A stretch of 64,000 bases of DNA from Escherichia phage dw-ec. The notes beneath the pieces were generated by a model. That model worked only from the letters and a program-made list of their open reading frames with translations, had not been told where the DNA came from and did no database searches. The stretch lies in the sequence record OL739525.1; one strand, 5' to 3'. The position numbers and the translations under genes were made by a program. Positions 25,846-56,966 of the stretch are shown piece after piece (within the stretch, counting starts at the first letter, position 1; each line of letters opens with the position of its first letter).

Positions 25846-26154
25846 TCAACAAGTAATTTCAAAAGGTGTATACGGTTCCGTATTTCTCATGATCCAAGGA
25901 CTGCTAGGATTGCTCGGATCATAAGGACCAAAAGGTTTTATGGTCGGTTGTGTTTCTTTCTTCTGAATCTCTTCAAAAATACGACGAAGTTCAGAATATT
26001 CTTGATCCACCATAAGATTCGGTGCATCTGATTCTACAGCTTGCAGGTTATCTTCCTTAAGAACAATCTCACGAACAAGATTAACATCTTCTGTTTCTAA
26101 GATAACTTCTTTACGGATATTACCTACACTTTGAATAATTGTAATCTTATACAT
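25846..26154 (-). CDS. hypothetical protein
   Basis: ORF, 102 aa. Confidence 0.45.
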   Translation of the reverse strand: MYKITIIQSVGNIRKEVILETEDVNLVREIVLKEDNLQAVESDAPNLMVDQEYSELRRIFEEIQKKETQPTIKPFGPYDPSNPSSPWIMRNTEPYTPFEITC

Positions 26155-26897
26155 TAATCCTCCTCAAGAGTTGAATAAAATTGAAGACCACCGTCCATAT
26201 CGAAATAAGCAAATGTTAAGTTATTATTGAACACAGATCCAGTATCCATATAAACACGATTCGCATTGATAATAGGTGTTTTTACATAAGAGTGTCCATG
26301 AAACACATAATCCACACCCATCACAACAGGAAGTTTCATTCCCTCTTTAGCACAGTCTACCATATCTCTGTCCCACATAAGTGCTTCAGCAAAACGGTTT
26401 TCCTGTGTTTTTGTCATCTTCGAAATGTATTCTGGAATATCTGTTACAGGGAGATATTCCAAAGAAGATGGATACCCACCATGAATAAACGCAAGTTTCA
26501 TGCCTCTGTAGTTAACAATGAGAACAACAGGTAAATCTTCTGTCATCATTGCTAAGGCTGTAGCTCCTTCTTCACCACATTCTTCAAAGACCGTATATCC
26601 TCCGTTTTGATACCAACACTCGTAGTAGCTACGATCTCCTTCCAGCATACCTTTAATCATCATGTCTTCATGATTGCCACGAATAGCGTAGCGATTGTGT
26701 TTACGAGTAAATTCTAAAACACAACGAAAGTTTTGCTTTCCACGGTCAGTAAGATCTCCTAGAGATACAACCACATCTGTATCTCGGATACCTAACTTTG
26801 CCTTTCCTTTTTCATACAAATTATAACAACCGTGTAGATCTCCAATTATAAAAAGATCTTGATCGTTTTTAACAGTAATTTCTTTGTGTATGATCAC
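26154..26897 (-). CDS. Ser/Thr protein phosphatase (metallophosphoesterase, lambda-PPase type)
   Basis: GDLHG, GDLTDRG, GNHE metallophosphatase motifs in order. Confidence 0.7.
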   Translation of the reverse strand: MIIHKEITVKNDQDLFIIGDLHGCYNLYEKGKAKLGIRDTDVVVSLGDLTDRGKQNFRCVLEFTRKHNRYAIRGNHEDMMIKGMLEGDRSYYECWYQNGGYTVFEECGEEGATALAMMTEDLPVVLIVNYRGMKLAFIHGGYPSSLEYLPVTDIPEYISKMTKTQENRFAEALMWDRDMVDCAKEGMKLPVVMGVDYVFHGHSYVKTPIINANRVYMDTGSVFNNNLTFAYFDMDGGLQFYSTLEED

Positions 26898-27233: not shown

Positions 27234-27824
27234 TCAAATTATTAACGAAACTGCATGACTAAATCTTGGTTCAGATATAACCTCTGCTACAGTCACATAT
27301 GTATCGTGCAGCCAAAAAGATTCTACTCTACAAACACAAATACCGTTGATAATGAAATCTACACAGGCTTTATTATTTTCGCACACTTGTTGACTATAAA
27401 CAACCCCTAAAGAGTCATAAAGTGATCTCACTGTTGCTACCATTTCATCTGTTTCGTCTTCCTGTGAAACAAAGAAAACGAATACAGACAAGTTATTAGC
27501 GAAAGTATTGCTATTCTCTACTTCAACCGACTTACAAGGTAAAAAGGAGTAATATTTACCGTTAGGTATCAATTTCGCCTCAACCTGGTTAAGTATGCTT
27601 TGAGATGGTTTTGTTACATAAAAAAGATTTTCTGTTGGGTTTTCAACATTACTCCTTACTATGCAACGAGTGGGGTTCGAAGGATCAAAAACATGATCGA
27701 AATCGACACACACAGGTAAGTTAACAACTTTAAACTTTTTGCTAAGAATGCTTACTGCTGTAAAAATCAAACCAGCATTTATTTTGCCAGTGAAAGTTGA
27801 ACGCATAACTACTCCTCGGATCAT
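27234..27824 (-). CDS. hypothetical protein
   Basis: ORF, 196 aa. Confidence 0.45.
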   Translation of the reverse strand: MIRGVVMRSTFTGKINAGLIFTAVSILSKKFKVVNLPVCVDFDHVFDPSNPTRCIVRSNVENPTENLFYVTKPSQSILNQVEAKLIPNGKYYSFLPCKSVEVENSNTFANNLSVFVFFVSQEDETDEMVATVRSLYDSLGVVYSQQVCENNKACVDFIINGICVCRVESFWLHDTYVTVAEVISEPRFSHAVSLII

Positions 27825-44550: not shown

Positions 44551-44580
44551 TAAAAAGCCTACCTCATTAAGTAGGTAGGC
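44551..44580 (-). terminator. intrinsic terminator (minus strand)
   Basis: hairpin gcctacct/aggtaggc followed on the minus strand by TTTTTA. Confidence 0.5.
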
Positions 44581-45548: not shown

Positions 45549-46274
45549 TTACTTGTTAATAATACCTGCAATATTAGGTTTGACAAAGGTCGATGGTTTC
45601 ATGATCTTACCTTTATCATCAAAGAACACATACACTTTCTGTTTTTCATTATAAACAGCATGAACACCAGTGTATGCCCCTTCTGGACGATTGGCATTTC
45701 GTTCTTCAATTGCAGCGCATTCTTGTGCAATGGCTGAATCGATATCCGAAGTTTTCCAAGTTTTCAGCAACTGTTGTTTAGTTGGATACTTGGAATCATT
45801 ACTTTTCAATACCTCTTTAATAACTTTCTTTTCTGGATATTTTGAACGGATTAGAGTGTCACGAGACATACGCATAATACCAGCAGCCATTAGTGCCATT
45901 TGAACTGGCTCTGTAAATGTTTGTTCCAAAGCATCAAAATCAGTATACACAGTTGGAGTAAAAACATCGCCTACAGCATAGTCCAAGAAATTCATCGTAT
46001 GTTCTTCACCAAAGAACATGTAAGTCAGATAACTGGATACTACAAAAATATCTGCTGCTGCATCCAAGAGTTCTACATGATCGTTTACTTTCGCGGCTGT
46101 TTCATACTCTTTAAGCTCTTCACGAACGAACCCGATTTGGGACATAAATAGCTCTTGAGTGAATTCAGGTTGTTCACCACCTCGTGCTTTGGCATTCCAA
46201 TCAATCACGTGCTTTGCTGCATTTTTGAAAAATTCAGTATCGAATTTAATATCTTTAAAAAAATTCTCGATCAT
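45549..46274 (-). CDS. MazG-like nucleotide pyrophosphohydrolase domain protein
   Basis: EELKEYETAAKVNDHVELLDAAADI fits the E-x2-E ... E-x2-D all-alpha NTP-PPase motif. Confidence 0.45.
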   Translation of the reverse strand: MIENFFKDIKFDTEFFKNAAKHVIDWNAKARGGEQPEFTQELFMSQIGFVREELKEYETAAKVNDHVELLDAAADIFVVSSYLTYMFFGEEHTMNFLDYAVGDVFTPTVYTDFDALEQTFTEPVQMALMAAGIMRMSRDTLIRSKYPEKKVIKEVLKSNDSKYPTKQQLLKTWKTSDIDSAIAQECAAIEERNANRPEGAYTGVHAVYNEKQKVYVFFDDKGKIMKPSTFVKPNIAGIINK

Positions 46275-46283
46275 TATAACTCC

Positions 46284-46544
46284 TTATTTAAAATAGCTTT
46301 CTAGAAAGTTGCTAATATTTACTACAGTCTCACCCATGTAAATTCCTGCGAAACCGAAAACAAGCATACGTGGAATATTGAAATACCATTTATCCGCCGG
46401 AAAAGATGCCAGAATTACAATAGCAATTGCTATCAACATCATAAGAATTGTTGCTAAAATTATCATAAAAATGCCTCCAGGTATTTTGCACAATGGTAAG
46501 CTAAGAAACAAGAAACTACCGCATACCCAACTCCAGACATACAT
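46284..46544 (-). CDS. hypothetical membrane protein
   Basis: two hydrophobic helices. Confidence 0.45.
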   Translation of the reverse strand: MYVWSWVCGSFLFLSLPLCKIPGGIFMIILATILMMLIAIAIVILASFPADKWYFNIPRMLVFGFAGIYMGETVVNISNFLESYFK

Positions 46545-46657
46545 GAATCAATCGCAATACATACGGTTCTTTTCTTTGAATTCTTAGGAAAGCTTTCCGA
46601 AGCATTCATACAATAAAAAGAAAGCACACTGAAAACGATTAAAATGGCTAAGAACAT
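46463..46657 (-). CDS. hypothetical small membrane protein
   Basis: hydrophobic N-terminus; overlaps neighbour. Confidence 0.3.
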   Translation of the reverse strand: MFLAILIVFSVLSFYCMNASESFPKNSKKRTVCIAIDSCMSGVGYAVVSCFLAYHCAKYLEAFL

Positions 46658-46666
46658 TTTTCCTCC

Positions 46667-47794
46667 TTATTCTGCTGGTTCCCAAGTGCCTGGGATCATT
46701 TCTCGAATACGAACACCAACAGGTTTTGTTGGAATACCTTCATCTGAAAATTCTTCATACTCTATTTCAACGAACTGATTAATCAAGGTAGAAGCATTCT
46801 CTGCTTTACGATAATTGATAGTCTCATGAGCATCTTTACGCATTAAGAATTCGACTACTTTACCATTTTCCATCTCACCTGTCAACACTCCATCACCATT
46901 TTTATCACTTTTTGAATTTGTTACTTTAACTTCAAGGGTGTGGCGAGGCTTACGTTTAATAACGTCATAAGAACGTTTATCAAATTCGTAAACTCCGTGA
47001 GCATTACGATATACTACACCTTCAGCTTTCTCAAGTAAAGCTTTTTCATAGAAAGCATCAAACTGTTCTTGGTTTTCAATATACTCTGTATGAACTACAC
47101 AAATAAGCTCGTCAAGACCATAATCTTCAACTACTGCCTTAAGAGCAGTAAGAACATCAACACGTTTTTCAAACGGTAGATCTGGAACTGGAATATCGTA
47201 TACGTAATAATTCAGCAAAGGTGTATTTGCATTATGCTTCTTCCAGGCACTGTTAATTTGTTGCAGACTAAGGACACCTAACCCAGCAAACACTTCACCA
47301 TCAAGAGGATGACCAACAACTTCACTAATAAAGTTTGGAATACCTTTCCAATGAGGTGGCAGGTTATACACTTCCCCAGCTTTTGATAAACACTCCCCTT
47401 TCATGTTAATCATAGAACGTAACCCGTTCAGTTTGTATTGTGCATAACCAGGGAACACAACCCTTTCAGGATAATCTTTATAATCCTGGCATTTCATTGG
47501 TGTAGAAGGAACATGGTTTTCAGCTTCTTCTTTTGTTTTATAATAGCCATTCTTTAACTGTTTTGTCCATTTGGCAAAAGCTTCAAGTTCAGCTTGTTCT
47601 TCTGGTGTTGTTTCATTGGAACGACCGATGTTTTTTGCTTCTGCTGTATAAGATTTTTCTGTGATTTTTCCACCTACCCTTCCATGAGCTACAGTAACAA
47701 CTGCACCATCTGTATACACTGTCCACTGTTTAAGTTTTCCTTTTGAATCTTTACCATACAGCGTTTGATTTGTTTGTTGCATTAGTCCTCCCAT
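46667..47794 (-). CDS. ATP-dependent polynucleotide ligase (covalent nucleotidyltransferase superfamily)
   Basis: motif I KLNGLR, motif III LDGEVF, motif IV-V AEGVVYR, KRK; unusual N-terminal domain. Confidence 0.55.
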   Translation of the reverse strand: MGGLMQQTNQTLYGKDSKGKLKQWTVYTDGAVVTVAHGRVGGKITEKSYTAEAKNIGRSNETTPEEQAELEAFAKWTKQLKNGYYKTKEEAENHVPSTPMKCQDYKDYPERVVFPGYAQYKLNGLRSMINMKGECLSKAGEVYNLPPHWKGIPNFISEVVGHPLDGEVFAGLGVLSLQQINSAWKKHNANTPLLNYYVYDIPVPDLPFEKRVDVLTALKAVVEDYGLDELICVVHTEYIENQEQFDAFYEKALLEKAEGVVYRNAHGVYEFDKRSYDVIKRKPRHTLEVKVTNSKSDKNGDGVLTGEMENGKVVEFLMRKDAHETINYRKAENASTLINQFVEIEYEEFSDEGIPTKPVGVRIREMIPGTWEPAE

Positions 47795-48003
47795 TTAAAA
47801 ACTGAAATTTTCAATCTGTTACACACTTCATCCAAATCTGCGTCGAGTAACGTTGTGGATGTTGCCAACATATAATCAATGCTTGTGAAACCTTGCCCTT
47901 TGGCATAGTCAAGCATATCTTCATACATATCTTCAAGATCACCGTCATCAAAAGTAGCTAGAAAATCCTCGTCCCCGCTACGAACATAAAATGCAGTACT
48001 CAT
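47782..48003 (-). CDS. hypothetical acidic protein
   Basis: ORF, 73 aa. Confidence 0.4.
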   Translation of the reverse strand: MSTAFYVRSGDEDFLATFDDGDLEDMYEDMLDYAKGQGFTSIDYMLATSTTLLDADLDEVCNRLKISVFKWED

Positions 48004-48191
48004 TCATCTTCATCCCAAGATTCAAAAACGCAGCAATCATCGGTTTCTATAATACCAACACGTCCGCAGGTATTGCAAGTGATTTTATCACCGTAGAATA
48101 AATAATTTTTATCACCCTCTGTGTTTACAGTTATGTCATTACTACCACAAGGGCAAGTCAGCCAACCAACAACAACGATATCTTTTTTCAT
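48000..48191 (-). CDS. hypothetical zinc-ribbon protein
   Basis: CPCG ... CNTCG cysteine pairs. Confidence 0.4.
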   Translation of the reverse strand: MKKDIVVVGWLTCPCGSNDITVNTEGDKNYLFYGDKITCNTCGRVGIIETDDCCVFESWDEDE

Positions 48192-48200
48192 AATCCCTCC

Positions 48201-48527
48201 TTAAGCGTTCAGTTCGTTGTTGAGTTCGTAAATCTCTTCTTGAAGAGCATCAATCTCTTCCTCCAAACGGGAGATCTCTTCTTTTAGATATACCGTTTCT
48301 GATTCTTTCTCTTCTAATTCATTTTCAAATTTTACTTTATTCGCCTCATTTTCATAATGCAGTTCAGCGTAATCATCACGCATTTGTTCAATAAGATGAA
48401 TCAGAGATAAGATATAGTTATCCCCAGTTTCATCTCGCCACTCTTCCCCGTGGCGCAAGATTGTGATTCGTCCCGTGTTTTCATCTAAAATTGTCTCATA
48501 TTTACGATCATCTGTATAAATCTGCAT
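48201..48527 (-). CDS. hypothetical coiled-coil protein
   Basis: ORF, 108 aa, heptad-rich C-terminus. Confidence 0.45.
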   Translation of the reverse strand: MQIYTDDRKYETILDENTGRITILRHGEEWRDETGDNYILSLIHLIEQMRDDYAELHYENEANKVKFENELEEKESETVYLKEEISRLEEEIDALQEEIYELNNELNA

Positions 48528-48536
48528 TATTACTCC

Positions 48537-48941
48537 TTATTGAAGTTTAAGTGAACCACGAAGACGTTTCTCTTGCTGATCACGAATATATTGTGGAACC
48601 TCGTGAATTGAATCATTACCGTGCCTATTTTCAACAACTAAAGAGATAACTTGATAACCAAACTCTTCAGCAAGAGTTAGATAAGGTTTAAGTTCTTTCT
48701 CTGTGGTTGAAGTGTTAGAAACAATAATCTTGTTAAGATTAGATGCCATAGCATCACGAACAATACTCTGACACCATGCGTGTGCTTTACCTACATTTTC
48801 TGGCTTCCAATCGTAAACACCACTTTCTGTATAATGATATTGATCTGCCTCACAGATAGGCCAATAACCTTCAGAAATAATTTCTGCTACCGTAGATTTA
48901 CCAGCACCTGAAACGCCACGTAAAATGATAAGTTGTTTCAT
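48537..48941 (-). CDS. P-loop polynucleotide kinase-like protein
   Basis: Walker A GVSGAGKST; N-terminus resembles the kinase domain of T4 polynucleotide kinase. Confidence 0.55.
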   Translation of the reverse strand: MKQLIILRGVSGAGKSTVAEIISEGYWPICEADQYHYTESGVYDWKPENVGKAHAWCQSIVRDAMASNLNKIIVSNTSTTEKELKPYLTLAEEFGYQVISLVVENRHGNDSIHEVPQYIRDQQEKRLRGSLKLQ

Positions 48942-49874
48942 TTATCCTCCAAAGAAGTTTTCGATTTTTTCACGTCGCTCTTGCTGATTTAAAGCAGCCC
49001 ATTGAGTCTTCGTAAAATTATTTCGAATCCATTCTAACAAAGCGTAATATTCTTCGTCAACAATTTGTTTGGCATTTTTTGGATTATCCCAAATCAGATC
49101 CCACTTTTTATCTCCACCACGCATAAGAAACTTCTTAGTAAGATAGTGTGGTGATTTAATTTTTAAAAGTAAGTTGAACGGATAGTTTGTTTCACGAACT
49201 ACAAACCCTTCGTGTTTACAATGTTTAGACATTTCAACAACATCTGAAAACTTAACCATTGGATGAACTTCAGGACGCTTAAATTTGGTGACAGAAGCAA
49301 TTCCATCAAGAGCACCTTCAGGTAACATAAAACTTGTCCCATCAGGATTTTGAATTCTGGCACCAATTAAGTATGCACCTGGTTCTTCTTCGACAATATG
49401 TGGATCAGAAGGATCACAGATTTCAAACAGGAAAGTTGCTTTTGCACTCTCTGCCCATTTGATGAAATGTTCTATGTCATCGCACTCTGAAACAATATGA
49501 TTCTTTGCAATACTTGCAAAATCTGATTCAAGGCTTCCTGTTGTCGATACAATAAGTTGACCTTTATATACACCTACAGAGGCCATAAAACCATTTACTT
49601 TACGAACCACATCTACAAGTTCATCCGCTGGTAGATCTGTGCCATTCTCAAAACGATTAAAAATCTTAGTGAAAGGCCAAATAACAACATTGTCATCAGC
49701 ATCAACAACGATTCCGCGACATTCTAGAAGACGAGAATCAATGCTCCATAAATTATCCCAGAAAACTTTGTTCTTATACTTAAGAACAGATAGACCAGAA
49801 TACTCTCCTTCTTTATATGTTTTCTTATGAACTAAACCTTTTTCAACCAAATCGTCGCAATTAAATTTAGTCAC
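48942..49874 (-). CDS. RNA ligase (Rnl1 family, T4 gp63-like)
   Basis: LLECRGIVV and FNRFEN match T4 Rnl1 ALECRGIMF and EKFFNLNEN; motif I KVNG, motif IV EGFVVRE, motif V KIKSPHY. Confidence 0.65.
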   Translation of the reverse strand: MTKFNCDDLVEKGLVHKKTYKEGEYSGLSVLKYKNKVFWDNLWSIDSRLLECRGIVVDADDNVVIWPFTKIFNRFENGTDLPADELVDVVRKVNGFMASVGVYKGQLIVSTTGSLESDFASIAKNHIVSECDDIEHFIKWAESAKATFLFEICDPSDPHIVEEEPGAYLIGARIQNPDGTSFMLPEGALDGIASVTKFKRPEVHPMVKFSDVVEMSKHCKHEGFVVRETNYPFNLLLKIKSPHYLTKKFLMRGGDKKWDLIWDNPKNAKQIVDEEYYALLEWIRNNFTKTQWAALNQQERREKIENFFGG

Positions 49875-49875
49875 A

Positions 49876-50427
49876 TTACTCTCCTTTGATTATTTTGTGA
49901 TGGTCTACAGTCACGATATCTCGTTTACTCATCATAGAAATTATCTCATCAAAATGCAAGATTTTTCCGTGTGCATCCCAACCCACATCTAACATTTTAC
50001 CATAAGCTTCATCAGGGAAAGATCCGTGGGAATGCCCGTGTAGCATGATTGATCCACGACCTTGTTTATTCCAGGAGGCAATAGGGTAATGACTTAAGAC
50101 GAAGAACAGCTTCTGGTATTTCACTTCGTCATAATACACCACTTCGCCATACTCTGCAAGCACTTCTCGGTGCTTGCTGTAATCATGATTCCCAACAAGA
50201 TAAGTGATATCCCCTTGCAGACGGGAAGCAATCTTACGGGTATCTTCTTCAGTCCCGAAACAGAAGTCGCCCAAATGCCACATCTTAACACCAGGGGTAG
50301 TAGCACATTTGTTCCATGCTTCGATCAAGGCTTCTGTCATGTGGTCCATATCTTCCCACGGACGATATTCAGGAGCAAACTCTCGAATGCGTTTATGCAT
50401 AAAATGCAAATCGCTTGTAATAAACAT
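49876..50427 (-). CDS. calcineurin-like metallophosphoesterase
   Basis: SDLHFMH, LGDFCFG, GNHD, HGHSH motifs. Confidence 0.65.
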   Translation of the reverse strand: MFITSDLHFMHKRIREFAPEYRPWEDMDHMTEALIEAWNKCATTPGVKMWHLGDFCFGTEEDTRKIASRLQGDITYLVGNHDYSKHREVLAEYGEVVYYDEVKYQKLFFVLSHYPIASWNKQGRGSIMLHGHSHGSFPDEAYGKMLDVGWDAHGKILHFDEIISMMSKRDIVTVDHHKIIKGE

Positions 50428-50783
50428 TAGTATAATCCCTCGCTAAATAATTCATGGTCGTGACCATTACGCTCATGGTCGATCTGGTCAGCATTTTCCG
50501 CGATGATGTAAGCATCCGCACGACTCCACCAATTGTAATACTGATCGATAAAGCCTTGATTATCTGGTGTGCACAAAGTTTTGTTGATTACACCTGCTTC
50601 TTTCAACACGTTTAACTGTGCATATAGTACAGGATTTGCATGTCGAACACAAGGAATAATTAACTCTTCGCCATTATTCAAAATATACTTATTTGCAGCA
50701 CAGACAATAACACGTTGCGCATAATGACCCTCACCCATCCAGGTAAGAGGTTGGTAACAAATGTTGTTTTCAATACCACTCAT
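50427..50783 (-). CDS. hypothetical protein
   Basis: ORF, 118 aa. Confidence 0.45.
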   Translation of the reverse strand: MSGIENNICYQPLTWMGEGHYAQRVIVCAANKYILNNGEELIIPCVRHANPVLYAQLNVLKEAGVINKTLCTPDNQGFIDQYYNWWSRADAYIIAENADQIDHERNGHDHELFSEGLY

Positions 50784-50942
50784 TGTTTCCTAATCCTCCT
50801 CTCTTAAATTATCCTCGAAAAAACTAGTATCTGGAAGTAAAAGATCATTGCTTGTGTCGGGCGAATCCTCTTCTTCTCTGTAGATAAAGTAACCTTCGTC
50901 CTCTTCTTGTTCCGACCAAACCGAATGATGCATGTTCTCTCC

Positions 50943-51299
50943 TTAGTAGTGCACACGAATCATTTTAATACCATAACGCTGCATGGATTCTTTTGCAAGC
51001 ATGAATTTATCCCCAGCGGCGGGATTAGAAGTATGCACGAAAATGGTAGGTGAACCAAAGCAAGGTTTACCAAACGCCAGAAGTTCTTCCAGGTGCAGGA
51101 AAACATCATACCCATCTTGGTCTGACTCCATACCTAAATCGTTGTCAAAATGCCACTCGTCTACAAAACGATAACCCTTCTGCACCTCATTCATGTAACG
51201 AGAGGCAAGAAGTTCCTGTGAGGTTTTAAACCAGATTGCATCTGGACAACCATAATCTTTTGGATCACGTAAATCATCAAGCCAAATAATAGTACCCAT
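50943..51299 (-). CDS. hypothetical protein
   Basis: ORF, 118 aa. Confidence 0.45.
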   Translation of the reverse strand: MGTIIWLDDLRDPKDYGCPDAIWFKTSQELLASRYMNEVQKGYRFVDEWHFDNDLGMESDQDGYDVFLHLEELLAFGKPCFGSPTIFVHTSNPAAGDKFMLAKESMQRYGIKMIRVHY

Positions 51300-51309
51300 A
51301 TAACCTCCT

Positions 51310-51780
51310 CTAAGCTGGCATGATTAAAAAAGAACTCTCCACTTCAAAATGCCAATCATCCACAAGCCCTGATTCCCAATCCTTCTCTTCATGGAAAGAG
51401 CAAATCCAACGGTACATACCTGGCGGTGTATTCTCAACATCTTCTGGCAACCCATAATCCAAAGCTGTCTTACCGTTCTCTGTAAAACCAGGATGGAGAT
51501 TAGGAGCTTTCAGTACAGAAACCATACCTCCAACATCCACAGCTACGATCCACTCTGTCATGTATGGGCTGTCATATTGAGGCTCATCAGAACCTACCTC
51601 AACAGCCTCTGTGCGTAAGATGATAATAGCCTGCTCTGTGATTGGGGCTTTGACAATATACCCGTGATCCTCAAAAAGATCGATAACCTCGAACTCATCG
51701 CCGTTTTCGACACCATAACTCTTATTCAAAGAGATAAACTTCGGGTTATCATCATAAGCTTTAGTTACTTTAATTCTCAT
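51310..51780 (-). CDS. hypothetical protein
   Basis: ORF, 156 aa. Confidence 0.45.
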   Translation of the reverse strand: MRIKVTKAYDDNPKFISLNKSYGVENGDEFEVIDLFEDHGYIVKAPITEQAIIILRTEAVEVGSDEPQYDSPYMTEWIVAVDVGGMVSVLKAPNLHPGFTENGKTALDYGLPEDVENTPPGMYRWICSFHEEKDWESGLVDDWHFEVESSFLIMPA

Positions 51781-52001
51781 TTTTCCTCCTTCACTTTAAC
51801 CTCAAATTCTACAGGCTTACCCTCAATGTAAAAACACTGATACTCTGCCTTATCATCCTCATCATGAGGCCAAGTTACCAAGGAGTTATAGCAATCTTCT
51901 GGTGCTTTGAAGATGGTTTTAGTCTCCACAGTAACATTCCCATTAAGTGTTGCCAATACCACCCACCCAGCTACATGGATCATAGTGCCTCCACTTTCCA
52001 C
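51777..52001 (-). CDS. hypothetical protein
   Basis: ORF, 74 aa. Confidence 0.4.
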   Translation of the reverse strand: MESGGTMIHVAGWVVLATLNGNVTVETKTIFKAPEDCYNSLVTWPHDEDDKAEYQCFYIEGKPVEFEVKVKEEK

Positions 52002-55042: not shown

Positions 55043-55117
55043 GGCCCTGTAGCTCAATGGGAGAGCTGTCGGCTCATAACCGATAGGTAGCTGGATCGAA
55101 ACCAGCCAGGGCCACCA
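55043..55117 (+). tRNA. tRNA-Met (anticodon CAU)
   Basis: acceptor ggccctg/cagggcc, anticodon loop ctCATaa, T-arm and encoded CCA (hand fold). Confidence 0.7.
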
Positions 55118-55119
55118 AC

Positions 55120-55194
55120 GTCTTTATGGTGTAATGGATAGCACAGGAGTCTTCTAAACTCTTAGTCAAGGTTCGATTCCTTGTAAAGACACCA
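55120..55194 (+). tRNA. tRNA-Arg (anticodon UCU)
   Basis: acceptor gtcttta/taaagac, anticodon loop ctTCTaa, T-loop ggttcgattcc, CCA (hand fold). Confidence 0.65.
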
Positions 55195-55390
55195 GAACAT
55201 TTTAACATGAATTAGCTCAAGTGATTTGAACCCACTACTGATCATGGTGGCAGAGAATGAGGCAAGTATGTCAGACATTATAAACAAAGGCCACGGTTAT
55301 ATTAGAAGACATAAATGCTCGAAGAGCACCGTTCGTTGAGAACGGGGGTTGGTGGAGTCACCATTCATGGTAAAATGTTTTAAAAAACTA

Positions 55391-55420
55391 TTGACAACTA
55401 ACATTATTTTATGTTAGATT
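55391..55420 (+). promoter_or_regulatory. sigma70-like promoter inside the tRNA cluster
   Basis: TTGACA at 55391-55396, TTAGAT/TAGATT 17-18 bp downstream. Confidence 0.45.
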
Positions 55421-55428
55421 ATAAGTAT

Positions 55429-55519
55429 GGAAGGGCAAATCGATGTGGCGACGAAAACGGTCTTGAAAACCGCCGAGCTTGAAAGAGCCTTGGGAGTTCG
55501 ACTCTCCCTCCTTCCGCCA
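55429..55519 (+). tRNA. tRNA-Ser (anticodon UGA), type II
   Basis: acceptor ggaaggg/tccttcc, anticodon loop ctTGAaa, long variable arm, CCA (hand fold). Confidence 0.6.
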
Positions 55520-55524
55520 GATTA

Positions 55525-55610
55525 GGTAGATTGGTGAAATGGTAGCCACAACAGTTTGCTAAACTGTAGTCGGAAACGGCGTGTAGGTTCGAGTCCTACA
55601 TCTACCGCCA
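55525..55610 (+). tRNA. tRNA-Ser (anticodon GCU), type II
   Basis: acceptor ggtagat/atctacc, anticodon stem acagt/actgt with loop ttGCTaa, long variable arm, CCA. Confidence 0.65.
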
Positions 55611-55740
55611 AGTTCTTTTTAATATAGCTTACTTTAATAGAGTAAACTTTCGGCAGATGGCCTCCACCATCTTACCGATAACTCATAGTTAGTGGTGTGA
55701 ACACTGGCTATTTTAAAAAGAATTTAAATATTAGTATTTA

Positions 55741-55828
55741 GGTGAGTTAATTCCGTAGGGGTAGCGGGGCAGACTGTAAATCTGTTATCATTGCGATTCG
55801 GGTGGTTCGACTCCATCACTCACCACCA
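55741..55828 (+). tRNA. tRNA-Tyr (anticodon GUA), type II
   Basis: acceptor ggtgagt/actcacc, anticodon loop ctGTAaa, long variable arm, CCA. Confidence 0.65.
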
Positions 55829-55834
55829 AATTAA

Positions 55835-55920
55835 GATGAGTTGGCTGAATGGTTTAAGCGGCGGACTGTTAATCCGTGTTCGAAAGAACGATATAGGTTC
55901 AAATCCTATACTCATCGCCA
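55835..55920 (+). tRNA. type II tRNA, anticodon apparently GUU (Asn-reading), identity uncertain
   Basis: acceptor gatgagt/actcatc, 3-bp D stem, anticodon stem gcgga/tccgt with loop ctGTTaa, variable-arm hairpin gttc-gaaa-gaac, CCA (hand fold). Confidence 0.5.
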
Positions 55921-55927
55921 GAATTAT

Positions 55928-56004
55928 GGACTTGTAGAGTTAAGGTAAACCCCCAGTCGCCAAGAGGCTTCTGGAATTGCAGGTATCGAATCCTGCCGAG
56001 TCCC
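55928..56004 (+). ncRNA. tRNA-like sequence, fold unresolved (possible degenerate tRNA)
   Basis: acceptor-like pairing ggacttg/cgagtcc and T-arm-like gcagg..cctgc, but no clean anticodon arm. Confidence 0.3.
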
Positions 56005-56010
56005 AGTTTT

Positions 56011-56085
56011 GCTCCTATAGTATAATGGCTATTACAACGGTTTTGTAATCCGTGGATCTCTGTTCGATTCAGAGTGGGAGCACCA
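56011..56085 (+). tRNA. tRNA-Thr (anticodon UGU), tentative
   Basis: acceptor gctccta/tgggagc, T-arm ctctg-ttcgatt-cagag, anticodon loop ttTGTaa with a U-U at the stem end, CCA. Confidence 0.5.
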
Positions 56086-56358
56086 ACATAACATTAAGAG
56101 CACTGTGATTGATCGTCGTATCCTGTGCACAAGGTCTGCTCGAAAGACAGTGTTCTTAGTATTGTGTTGATCACACAAAGAGTTACCTGAAACTTGACCG
56201 GAGTAGGGTTGGATGGGGCAAAAGAAGAAGCGGCTCTCCCATCGACAGCAACGAAGAATAATATTTGACTTTGGTTTTGTATTATTTTAAGTTAGCTTAC
56301 CGAACGTAGGGCTAGTCACCCAATGGGATACTCGTCACTGTCCCACTCAATAAAACTA

Positions 56359-56388
56359 TTGACAACCAATAGTAAAATGTAGTATAGT
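56359..56388 (+). promoter_or_regulatory. sigma70-like promoter inside the tRNA cluster
   Basis: TTGACA at 56359-56364, TATAGT at 56383-56388. Confidence 0.55.
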
Positions 56389-56399
56389 AAAGATGTAGG

Positions 56400-56473
56400 G
56401 CGTTCTTGGTGTAGCGGTAGCATTCCGTCCTTCCAAGTCGGCGGCACGAGTTCGATCCTCGTAGAACGCTCCA
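56400..56473 (+). tRNA. tRNA-Gly (anticodon UCC)
   Basis: acceptor gcgttct/agaacgc, T-arm acgag-ttcgatc-ctcgt, anticodon loop ctTCCaa, CCA. Confidence 0.6.
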
Positions 56474-56571
56474 AATTATTTAATAAAGGGTTGCCAGAAA
56501 ACTTTCTCTTTTACTCATGGTTTTCTCCTTCTCTCACACCTCTTCTGGTTGCCCTTCATTAAATGATTTAT

Positions 56572-56647
56572 TGGTTTGTAGTGTAGTCCGGTAGCACACG
56601 ACACTTTGACTGTCGTAGGTTTGGTTCAAATCCAGACAGACCAGCCA
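56572..56647 (+). tRNA. tRNA-Gln (anticodon UUG)
   Basis: U1-A72 acceptor tggtttg/cagacca, D stem gtgt/gcac, anticodon stem cgaca/tgtcg with loop ctTTGac, CCA. Confidence 0.65.
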
Positions 56648-56652
56648 TATAA

Positions 56653-56729
56653 CGGAATTTAGCTCAGTTTGGTAGAGCATACGCTTTGGGAGCGTAGGGT
56701 CGCAGGTTCGAATCCTGCAATTCCGACCA
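56653..56729 (+). tRNA. tRNA-Pro (anticodon UGG)
   Basis: acceptor cggaatt/aattccg, anticodon stem tacgc/gcgta with loop ttTGGga, T-loop ggttcgaatcc, CCA. Confidence 0.7.
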
Positions 56730-56735
56730 ATCAAA

Positions 56736-56809
56736 TGTTTCGTAGTTCAATGGTAGAACCCACGACTGATAATCGTGAGACACAAGTTCGATTCTTGTCG
56801 AAACAACCA
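56736..56809 (+). tRNA. tRNA-Ile (anticodon GAU)
   Basis: acceptor tgtttcg/cgaaaca, anticodon stem cacga/tcgtg with loop ctGATaa, T-arm acaag-ttcgatt-cttgt, CCA. Confidence 0.65.
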
Positions 56810-56811
56810 GT

Positions 56812-56881
56812 TTCCCGTTAGACTTACAGGATAAGAGTTCCACAACTTATTGTGATGCTGGTTCGAATCCAGCACGGGATA
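56812..56881 (+). ncRNA. tRNA-like sequence with canonical T-arm but aberrant anticodon region
   Basis: T-arm gctgg-ttcgaat-ccagc and partial acceptor pairing; anticodon arm would need a 10-nt loop; no CCA. Confidence 0.3.
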
Positions 56882-56887
56882 CATAAT

Positions 56888-56966
56888 AGCGGGATAGAGG
56901 AGTCTGGTCGTCCTCGCCAGTTTCATATGCTGGAGATCATCGGTTCAAATCCGATTCCCGCCTCCA
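56888..56966 (+). tRNA. tRNA with anticodon CAU (Met or lysidine-Ile), A1-C72 mismatch
   Basis: acceptor agcggga/tcccgcc, D stem gagg/cctc, anticodon loop ttCATat, T-arm atcgg-ttcaaat-ccgat, CCA. Confidence 0.6.

Follow-up and report, generated by a model that had tools for sequence, protein, structure and literature searches.

Bacteriophage T4 repairs tRNA cut by the PrrC anticodon nuclease with the enzymes Pnkp and Rnl1. Three consecutive genes of Escherichia phage dw-ec raise the question of whether such a repair could also be carried out by a different set of enzymes. The genes are located at positions 48537-50427 of a stretch of 64,000 nucleotides (nt) from sequence record OL739525.1, which is called the window here, and they encode a metallophosphoesterase (MPE), a Rnl1-like RNA ligase and a small P-loop kinase. 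An initial annotation, made from the sequence alone, had described them as an RNA end-healing and sealing module, had added a second ligase encoded nearby, and had connected the module with a tRNA cluster and with counter-defence against host anticodon nucleases.

Our analysis indicates that the three genes probably form a three-enzyme RNA heal-and-seal unit. As proposed here, an RNA, most plausibly the anticodon loop of a tRNA, would be cut by a metal-independent ribonuclease, leaving a 2',3'-cyclic phosphate and a 5'-OH. The MPE would open and remove the cyclic or 3'-phosphate, the kinase would phosphorylate the 5'-OH, and the Rnl1/Trl1-type ligase would reseal the break by the classic lysyl-AMP pathway. 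We infer these substrates, this order of reactions and the exact chemistry of the MPE, as well as a role in counter-defence. The three proteins were assigned to families and have intact catalytic motifs, their genes are linked across phages, and both a natural fusion and a displacement of the ligase were found. The trio and the gene of the second ligase were already named in GenBank, as metallophosphatase/phosphoesterase, putative RNA ligase, ATPase or putative polynucleotide kinase, and ATP-dependent DNA ligase, respectively, and earlier work predicted a system of this type for related phages.

Identification of the three enzymes

As listed in Table 1, the four open reading frames (ORFs) reported in the initial annotation, those of the trio and of the second ligase, were found on the minus strand in the ORF map. 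The RNA ligase matched the Pfam family RNA_lig_T4_1 (PF09511) over the whole profile (1-227) with 56.6 bits, the gathering score being 28.3. Motif I (K92, N94 and G95), motif III (E151), motif IV (E222 and G223) and motif V (K238 and K240) were invariant in 75 of 75 family members, and so were R53 and G54 of a T4-like LECRG element. When the family profile was searched against PDB, only T4 Rnl1 was matched (2c5u and 9do4, 3e-10) and nothing else was significant, which agrees with the earlier description of a Rnl1-like ligase with motifs I, IV and V. The protein has the Rnl1 adenylyltransferase fold and is equally close in fold to the ligase domain of Trl1 (Trl1-LIG) and to T4 Rnl1. It is not an equivalog of T4 RnlA, as TIGR02308 gave 24.7 bits with a cut-off of 242. 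The hidden Markov model alignment to T4 Rnl1 ended at motif V (residues 239/250), and the C-terminal module of the ligase consists of ~68 aa with five helices.

Viral contigs yielded 83 confirmed occurrences of the ligase subfamily. A pattern-based scan of ~185,000 bacterial and archaeal species genomes, which distant relatives may escape, gave one match, on a 137-kb contig of a metagenome-assembled genome that is probably viral. These counts suggest that the subfamily is essentially viral.

The kinase matched AAA_33 (4e-10), PHROG 2071 (3e-56) and PHROG 505, 'polynucleotide kinase' (2e-8). Its Walker A motif is G9-V-S-G12-A-G14-K15-S16, in which G12, G14 and K15 are invariant in the family. 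The lid Arg R106 is invariant as well, and so is the pair A32-D33 with the catalytic Asp, D33, which pairs with the Asp of the Pnkp1 'RDD' element in the HMMER alignment. The best matches of the family profile in PDB were Capnocytophaga Pnkp1, the Mucorales kinase 9d8a, the kinase domain of Clostridium thermocellum Pnkp and T4 Pnk, with E-values of 3e-6, 2e-4, 3e-4 and 6e-4, respectively. Gluconate, uridine and nicotinamide-riboside kinases followed behind these polynucleotide kinases at 1e-3 or worse. The resemblance to the kinase domain of T4 Pnk noted initially was recovered, with Pnkp1 as the best match. The structure 9d8a is presumably that of the Mucorales RNA 5'-OH kinase of tRNA splicing described in PMC11571804. 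The natural fusion of the kinase to the RNA ligase in 11 loci, described below, indirectly supports an RNA 5'-kinase activity.

The MPE matched PHROG 547, 'phosphoesterase', at 1e-55. All of the dinuclear metal motifs, D6xH8, G53D54, G79N80H81, H113 and G131H132xH134, were invariant in 28 homologues with identities down to 36%. The PF12850 score of the protein itself was below the threshold (22.6 vs 27), and its homologues carry PF12850 or PF00149. The family profile matched only the Aquifex protein aq_1665 (1xm7) in PDB, at 1e-21, and the AlphaFold2 model (pLDDT 95) had a TM score of 0.71 to 1xm7 in Foldseek, in keeping with the calcineurin-like phosphoesterase first described. Membership in the lambda-phosphatase family that includes the phosphoesterase domain of bacterial Pnkp was considered and rejected: no lambda-phosphatase or Pnkp chain was matched at E<=1, and 1g5b was found at rank 33 (E 0.015, TM 0.41). 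We propose that the MPE acts as a 2',3'-cyclic phosphodiesterase/3'-phosphatase. There is a precedent for an MPE as 3' healer in the phosphatase domain of C. thermocellum Pnkp, which acts on 2',3'-cyclic phosphates (PMC2190708), and calcineurin-like and HD phosphatases were predicted to stand in for the HAD phosphatase in part of the RNA-repair systems of phages (PMC7824862). The suggestion that the activities of T4 Pnkp are split here, with the 3' role taken by an MPE, is supported, as no HAD phosphatase is present and the MPE is the constant phosphoesterase partner.

The window encodes a second metallophosphoesterase at 26154-26897 (minus strand). It is of the lambda-phosphatase/NinI type (PF00149 at 3e-13), the family of MPEs to which the RNA-repair phosphatase of bacterial Pnkp belongs. 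This gene is unlinked to the ligase, and its relatives were found in only 5 of 80 ligase loci.

The genes of the trio follow one another closely. The junction of the upstream ORF and the MPE gene is -1 nt (TAATG), that of the MPE and ligase genes is 1 nt and that of the ligase and kinase genes is 0 nt. The Shine-Dalgarno sequence of each downstream gene falls within the preceding gene, and other genes of the block are spaced by 6-10 nt. The tight consecutive junctions noted in the initial annotation are thus real, and the three genes are probably translationally coupled as one tightly packed unit in an early/middle gene block.

Linkage, fusion and ligase displacement in viral loci

The linkage of the genes was determined in a ligase-centred survey of 80 viral loci, in which the relatives of the ligase were 36-88% identical, ORFs were called and profile searches were done. 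Dereplication at 70% identity gave 42 ligase clusters, and the kinase counts were obtained with a kinase profile free of fusion-derived ligase sequence (71 loci). A kinase was present within 1.5 kb of the ligase in 67 of the 80 loci and directly adjacent to it in 42, and an MPE was present within 1.5 kb in 56 loci and adjacent in 25. Several of the loci lacking a partner end at a contig end. Counted by cluster, the kinase and the MPE each accompanied 35 of the 42 ligases (83%), and the DNA ligase, Sir2, MazG and cREC (a cyclic-phosphate-processing receiver-like protein) accompanied 15 (36%), 4, 4 and 3, respectively. This linkage of the kinase and the MPE goes far beyond chance or general synteny.

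The order of the MPE, ligase (LIG) and kinase (KIN) genes varied. The order MPE-LIG-KIN was found in 24 of the 80 loci, KIN-LIG-MPE in 16, a KIN::LIG fusion in 11, MPE-LIG-cREC-KIN-SIR2 in 6 and other orders in 23. In the loci typed KIN-x-LIG-MPE, the kinase and ligase genes abut. The linkage was kept although the order was shuffled, which points to selection on co-expression rather than inherited synteny.

The fusion proteins, 421-432 aa long, begin with the kinase and end with the ligase, as confirmed by Pfam (AAA_33 at 16-115 and RNA_lig_T4_1 at 184-367). They were found in loci L049, L050, L052, L053, L055-L057, L059, L061, L062 and L067 (for example, L056:568-1866). The fusion is a 'Rosetta stone' of the classic kind, pointing to a pathway in common. 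Genes for a thioredoxin and a Pyr_excise-like protein are located downstream in the fusion loci.

Reciprocal scans were made on the best 80 kinase-centred loci and the best 80 MPE-centred loci. The kinase-centred loci contained an MPE in 48 cases and a Rnl1-type ligase in 28, and a Rnl1-type ligase was present in 38 of the MPE-centred loci. In 23 loci without a Rnl1-type ligase, another RNA ligase, with a PHA02142 OB-fold N-domain and PF09414, was encoded no more than 5 kb from the MPE gene, the kinase gene or both. About 15 of these 23 have the PF09414 ligase directly beside the MPE-kinase pair, typically in the order MPE-KIN-ligase (for example, L184:4066-5196; also L188, L207, L224 and L241). 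It looks as if the sealing enzyme had been displaced by a non-orthologous RNA ligase while the healing pair stayed, and this conservation of the pair supports a role of the MPE and the kinase in healing RNA ends. RNA ligases with an N-terminal OB architecture seal ordinary 3'-OH/5'-PO4 ends. Since nick-sealing ligases of the PF09414 type need such ends, the MPE-kinase pair would be expected to produce them.

Taken together, the conserved linkage, the fusion and the MPE-kinase pair beside a second RNA ligase family provide strong evidence, at the level of comparative genomics, for a heal-and-seal unit made up of the MPE, the Rnl1-like ligase and the P-loop kinase, as the initial annotation had suggested.

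Other genes also recurred in the surveyed loci. A NAPRTase-like gene (L025:4686-6269) and a ribose-phosphate-pyrophosphokinase-like gene (L050:6121-6975) were found 1-3 kb from the repair genes in 17-19 of the 80 loci, all in one phage group; the NAPRTase-like and PRPP-synthetase-like proteins resemble phage NAD+ reconstitution enzymes. A small protein with an HD-like motif and no Pfam match was encoded ~0.8 kb upstream of the ligase in 15 loci (L083:6922-7404). NADAR, Nudix and HD-domain genes occurred together in kinase-bearing loci without a recognised RNA ligase (L176, L186, L189, L191, L212, L223 and L242).

Comparison with known systems and points against a repair unit

Compared with T4 Pnkp (PseT) and Rnl1 (gp63), the kinase of phage dw-ec stands alone with 134 aa and lacks the fused HAD (DxDxT) phosphatase, a dinuclear MPE serves as the phosphoesterase, and the three genes are contiguous. 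The ligase has a ~68-aa C-module in place of the ~120-aa tRNA-specificity domain of T4 Rnl1. The combination of kinase, metallophosphoesterase and ligase is shared with Pnkp/Hen1 of C. thermocellum and Pnkp1-Rnl-Hen1 of Capnocytophaga gingivalis. However, bacterial Pnkp/Hen1 systems have a single kinase-MPE-ligase polypeptide together with the 2'-O-methyltransferase Hen1, and this arrangement was not found at the locus. In contrast to fungal and plant Trl1, in which the ligase, the kinase and a cyclic phosphodiesterase domain (CPD) are joined as LIG-KIN-CPD and which acts with Tpt1, the proteins here are separate, and neither a 2H-type CPD domain nor Tpt1/KptA was identified.

Several observations weigh against a dedicated RNA-repair unit. 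Confirmed viral matches numbered at least 588 for the MPE family and at least 581 for the kinase family, compared with 83 for the ligase, so that both families are at least seven times commoner than the ligase in viral contigs. About 45% of the sampled reciprocal loci had no recognised RNA ligase within 5 kb, and the fusion clade had no MPE within the flanks examined. The E-values of the kinase in PDB are modest (3e-6 to 7e-4). Polynucleotide kinases hold the substrate phosphate with an Arg three residues past the catalytic Asp (R38 in T4, R41 in CthPnk). This Arg is absent from the kinase family, which has an invariant His36 at that position (A-D-x-[YF]-H).

The MPE and the ligase bring points of their own. 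Nothing was found in the literature on the function of aq_1665/COG4186, the family of the MPE, and its next and much weaker structural neighbours are the nuclease MPE/PdeM of P. putida (TM 0.41), Mre11, LpxH and MJ0936. Because the aq_1665 family is uncharacterised and these neighbours are nucleases and other phosphodiesterases, a nuclease or other phosphoesterase role of the MPE is possible. The C-module of the ligase falls far short, in length, of the domain that gives T4 Rnl1 its tRNA specificity, so that a preference of the ligase for tRNA is uncertain. Finally, no biochemical or genetic test of the trio family was found in the literature searched, which did not extend to the 2016 survey of Burroughs and Aravind.

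The published sirtuin neighbourhood and its accessory genes

A sirtuin-centred RNA-repair neighbourhood of 'type 2' was described in Escherichia phage V5 (rV5) and Proteus phage Mydo by Iyer, Burroughs, Anantharaman and Aravind in 2022 (PMC9503650). It shares with the window the families of T4-like tRNA ligase, cREC, nucleotide kinase, MazG, calcineurin-like phosphoesterase and sirtuin, and the proteins of the window are homologous. In our survey, the rV5-like loci L006-L010 and L017 had the order MPE-LIG-cREC-KIN-SIR2-DNA ligase-MazG, as published (PMC9503650), with cREC between the ligase and the kinase. SIR2 adjoins the module in L006-L014, L017 and L018, and lies directly downstream of the kinase in rV5-like phages.

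In phage dw-ec, the ligase, cREC, kinase, MazG and calcineurin-like phosphoesterase are all encoded within 45549-51299. Unlike in rV5 and Mydo, the sirtuin is 27 kb away and cREC is located upstream of the MPE and not between the ligase and the kinase. Gene content and homology place the locus in the published rV5-type neighbourhood, as a rearranged member. The genes for cREC, MazG and Sir2 had been overlooked in the initial annotation.

The Sir2 protein of the window is 51-64% identical to the products of SIR2 genes adjoining the module in rV5-like loci (among L006-L018). On the level of whole contigs, this Sir2 clade was common to 13 of the 80 ligase contigs, and ~40 Sir2 contigs of 104-122 kb had no ligase. 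MazG was found in 13 of the 80 loci, all of the rV5/phAPEC8-like group. The motifs WLDDLRDP, HFDNDLG and VHTSNP of cREC, with receiver-like acidic residues, and a conserved Lys were present in all 11 aligned sequences, and a sequence search of PDB gave no relatives of cREC. It was predicted to be a cyclic-phosphate-processing enzyme linked to RNA ligases (Iyer et al. 2021, PMC7824862). The sirtuin was proposed to remove 2'-phosphates like KptA/Tpt1 (PMC9503650), and the activities of both cREC and the sirtuin are predictions.

In the description of Iyer et al. (2022), the sirtuin is the hub and the phosphoesterase is occasional, whereas in our survey the MPE and the kinase are constant (83% each) and the sirtuin and cREC belong to one phage group (7-10%). 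The MPE, the kinase and the RNA ligase are the constant core, and cREC, Sir2 and MazG are lineage-specific additions. Sir2 is possibly a distant accessory of the module in phage dw-ec, and a role of MazG in it is uncertain.

The second ligase

The second ligase was part of the module in the initial annotation. Its motif I is KLNG, as reported, and the motif I of the African swine fever virus (ASFV) ligase likewise has Asn. The N-terminal domain, described as unusual, is present; from residue 43 onwards it can be aligned to its counterpart in the ASFV DNA ligase. The protein matched PF01068 (38.6 bits vs 26.2), PHROG 114 (3e-74) and PRK09125 of NCBIfam (2e-15), and all of its PDB matches, 4d05, 6imj (ASFV), 6dt1 and 8u6x, are DNA ligases. 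A DNA ligase gene was found within 8 kb of the RNA ligase in 40 of the 80 loci, on either side, at a distance of 0.7-4.8 kb and never adjacent to the trio. Membership of the second ligase in the RNA module, and its identity as an RNA ligase, were rejected on the basis of these profile and PDB matches and of a loose and variable linkage that is absent from half of the loci. The start is more likely the ATG at 47782 than position 47794, since GGAGG precedes the former and GenBank records use it.

Alternative explanations

The alternative that survives best is an NAD-dependent 'yeast-like' pathway after Iyer et al. (2022), which overlaps with the heal-and-seal unit but assumes another chemistry and another role of the MPE. 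Here, cREC or the MPE would open the cyclic phosphate to a 2'-phosphate, the kinase would phosphorylate the 5' end, and the ligase, requiring the 2'-PO4 like Trl1, would seal the break. Sir2 would then move the junction 2'-phosphate to NAD+ as an analogue of Tpt1/KptA, and the MPE and MazG would clear the ADP-ribose products. The presence of cREC, MazG and Sir2 in one genome and the rV5-like gene order are consistent with this pathway, as are the closeness of the ligase fold to Trl1-LIG, the five-helix C-module, which is short like that of fungal LIG, and the Mucorales kinase 9d8a as the second-best PDB match of the kinase profile. Furthermore, 74-75 of 75 ligases have H159 (8 residues past the motif III Glu), K248 and R252 (8 and 12 residues past the motif V Lys), which by spacing only are near the positions of the fungal 2'-PO4-binding His-Arg-Arg triad. 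T4 Rnl1 has Ile at the position of the His in the HMMER alignment. In the fungal triad, the His is 9 residues past the motif III Glu, and K286 of the yeast enzyme is followed by R295 and R298 (PMC11404444).

However, the offsets of the two triads differ by one residue and the match is one of spacing alone, and the activities of cREC and the sirtuin are themselves predictions. Sir2 and cREC occurred with the ligase in only 4 and 3 of the 42 clusters, respectively. The Sir2 clade was present in only 13 of the 80 ligase contigs and occurs in ~40 contigs free of the ligase, which indicates that the ligase family as a whole is independent of these proteins. Moreover, the same MPE-kinase pair serves the PF09414 ligase in other phages. 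We regard the yeast-like pathway as unlikely for the locus as a whole; chemistry like that of T4 and CthPnkp is favoured for the core, with a yeast-like path as a possible add-on in the rV5/phAPEC8 lineage. A narrower proposal, that the ligase is a phage counterpart of the 2'-phosphate-dependent Trl1/Rnl6 enzymes with a pocket made up of H159, K248 and R252, and that Sir2, as an analogue of Tpt1 without homology to it, or host KptA strips the 2'-phosphate, is quite unlikely on the present sequence comparison. If it were true, this would be the first 'yeast-type' repair pathway in a bacterial virus, and it would supply a substrate for the long-puzzling bacterial homologues of Tpt1/KptA.

It is very improbable that the kinase and the MPE instead clean up DNA nicks or breaks that host nucleases have left with 5'-OH and 3'-phosphate ends, for the DNA ligase, with the Rnl1-like enzyme as an auxiliary. 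T4 Pnkp acts on DNA ends too. The DNA ligase gene lies within 8 kb in half of the loci, the second-best structural match of the MPE is the P. putida DNA nuclease MPE/PdeM, which comes from a ligase-associated DNA repair operon, and NCBIfam gave a weak match of the MPE to PdeM (E 0.003). However, the TM score to PdeM is 0.41, compared with 0.71 to aq_1665, and the DNA ligase gene is never adjacent and is absent from the other half of the loci, whereas the RNA ligase adjoins the kinase or is fused with it. In loci that lack the Rnl1-type ligase, its place is taken by a different RNA ligase and not by a DNA ligase.

The three genes could also be unrelated neighbours, the ligase being a tail-fibre attachment catalyst (the second activity of T4 gp63) and the kinase and the MPE belonging to nucleotide or NAD metabolism, for example as a nucleoside or nicotinamide-riboside kinase and a nucleotide phosphodiesterase degrading defence signals. 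Names point in this direction, as the ligase is sometimes labelled 'RNA ligase and tail fiber protein attachment catalyst' in GenBank, PHROG names include the latter term, and the kinase was called 'nucleotide kinase' by Iyer et al. (PMC9503650); so do the weak PDB matches of the kinase to gluconate, uridine and nicotinamide-riboside kinases and the NAPRTase-like/PRPP-synthetase-like or NADAR/Nudix/HD genes near the module or the kinase in some phages. This explanation is highly unlikely, because adjacency under shuffled order, the kinase::ligase fusion and the ligase swap are difficult to reconcile with enzymes that have no substrate in common. In addition, the catalytic residues of the ligase would not have to be invariant if it were a purely structural protein of the tail fibre, and the profile search ranked polynucleotide kinases of RNA repair above small-molecule kinases. 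A nucleotide or NAD-metabolic role of the kinase and the MPE ranks below RNA repair, which is favoured by the profile matches and the fusion.

Genome setting and neighbouring genes

The region 46000-52000 shared 99.7% identity with Escherichia phage BI-EHEC and 97-99% with ~60 further phAPEC8-like myoviruses with genomes of ~150 kb. By these identities, the window is from a phAPEC8-like phage of the genus Phapecoctavirus (Stephanstirmvirinae). According to the GC-skew and the ORF map, the module is located in a long minus-strand block, from ~19 to 54 kb, with genes for replication and nucleotide metabolism.

Table 1. Positions of the repair genes and of other features in the window.
Feature	Position	Strand	Assignment and remarks
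MPE, 183 aa	49876..50427	-	Dinuclear MPE of aq_1665/COG4186 type; PHROG 547; proposed 3'-end healer
RNA ligase, 310 aa	48942..49874	-	ATP-dependent RNA ligase of the T4 Rnl1/fungal Trl1 clade; GTG start; PF09511; predicted sealing enzyme
Kinase, 134 aa	48537..48941	-	Stand-alone P-loop polynucleotide 5'-kinase-like protein; AAA_33, PHROG 2071; proposed 5'-end healer
DNA ligase	46667..47782	-	ATP-dependent; PF01068, PHROG 114; neighbour, judged outside the RNA module
ORF, 118 aa	50427..50783	-	PHROG 839 at 4e-47; stop overlaps the MPE start
cREC protein, 118 aa	50943..51299	-	PF20274, 52 bits vs 27; two ORFs upstream of the MPE
MazG-like nucleotide pyrophosphohydrolase	45549..46274	-	PF01503 at 3e-6, PHROG 671
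Sir2-family protein, 271 aa	19416..20231	-	PF02146 at 1e-22; 27 kb from the ligase, at the far end of the minus-strand block
tRNA cluster, 10-11 genes	55043..56966	+	10 called by ARAGORN, one added by Rfam; 4.6 kb from the module

The promoter scan gave 38 sigma-70-like sites, compared with 33 expected from shuffled sequence; this is no excess, and no boundaries of transcription units can be claimed from it. The single convincing intrinsic terminator on the minus strand between 44 and 55 kb is at 44580-44557, just downstream of a rdgC-like gene. Judging from its position, transcripts reading through from the repair genes may also include the DNA ligase, MazG and rdgC genes. The same hairpin, 44557-44580 on the minus strand, is also annotated in phage Schickermooser.

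The ORF directly upstream of the MPE gene is possibly co-translated with the module. The PHROG 839 family is a domain of ~95 aa with 302 cluster representatives at E<=1e-3, usually C-terminal in proteins of 90-430 aa. Conserved residues of the ORF product are R47-H48, Q76-G77-F78 and S114-E115. The product had no relatives in Pfam or NCBIfam, an exhaustive search of representatives and Pfam searches with ten longer homologues gave no identification either, and the family profile had no match in PDB. Relatives were near the ligase in just 3 of 80 loci.

The large tRNA cluster was confirmed, with ten genes called by ARAGORN. An eleventh tRNA, at 55741-55825 on the plus strand between tRNA-Ser and tRNA-Asn, was not called by ARAGORN and scored 39 bits in Rfam, above the gathering score; the near-identical phage ETEC-TG has a tRNA-Tyr annotated at this position. 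A tRNA-like element at 55429-55515 (plus strand) scored 35.7 bits with the tRNA-Sec model, below the threshold of 47. The cluster lies on the opposite strand to the module, in a separate block. The counter-defence against host anticodon nucleases and the tie between the module and the cluster, which the initial annotation had also put forward, are suggested by analogy with T4. The ORF at 27234-27824 (minus strand) is named 'histidyl tRNA synthetase' in phage ETEC-TG, but it had no Pfam match at E<=0.01 and the name looks unsupported.

Significance

Defences that cleave tRNA or other RNA are widespread and include PrrC, RloC, HEPN and Cas13-type nucleases and colicin-like toxins. To our knowledge, T4 Pnkp/Rnl1 is almost the sole experimentally understood phage answer that is based on repair. 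The module described here would be a compact and widespread alternative, with an MPE of an uncharacterised family in place of the HAD phosphatase and a minimal kinase of 134 aa.

The survey refines the published model by separating a constant core, made up of the MPE, the kinase and the RNA ligase, from the lineage-specific NAD-linked accessories cREC, Sir2 and MazG, and it adds the kinase::ligase fusion, the displacement of the ligase and the candidate 2'-PO4 triad. If the heal-and-seal unit is confirmed, it would give a function to the aq_1665/COG4186 family of MPEs and would provide enzymology with an RNA 5'-kinase of minimal size and with a short ligase resembling Rnl1 and Trl1. It would also help to explain how phAPEC8-like and rV5-like phages in therapy collections tolerate RNA-targeting immunity.

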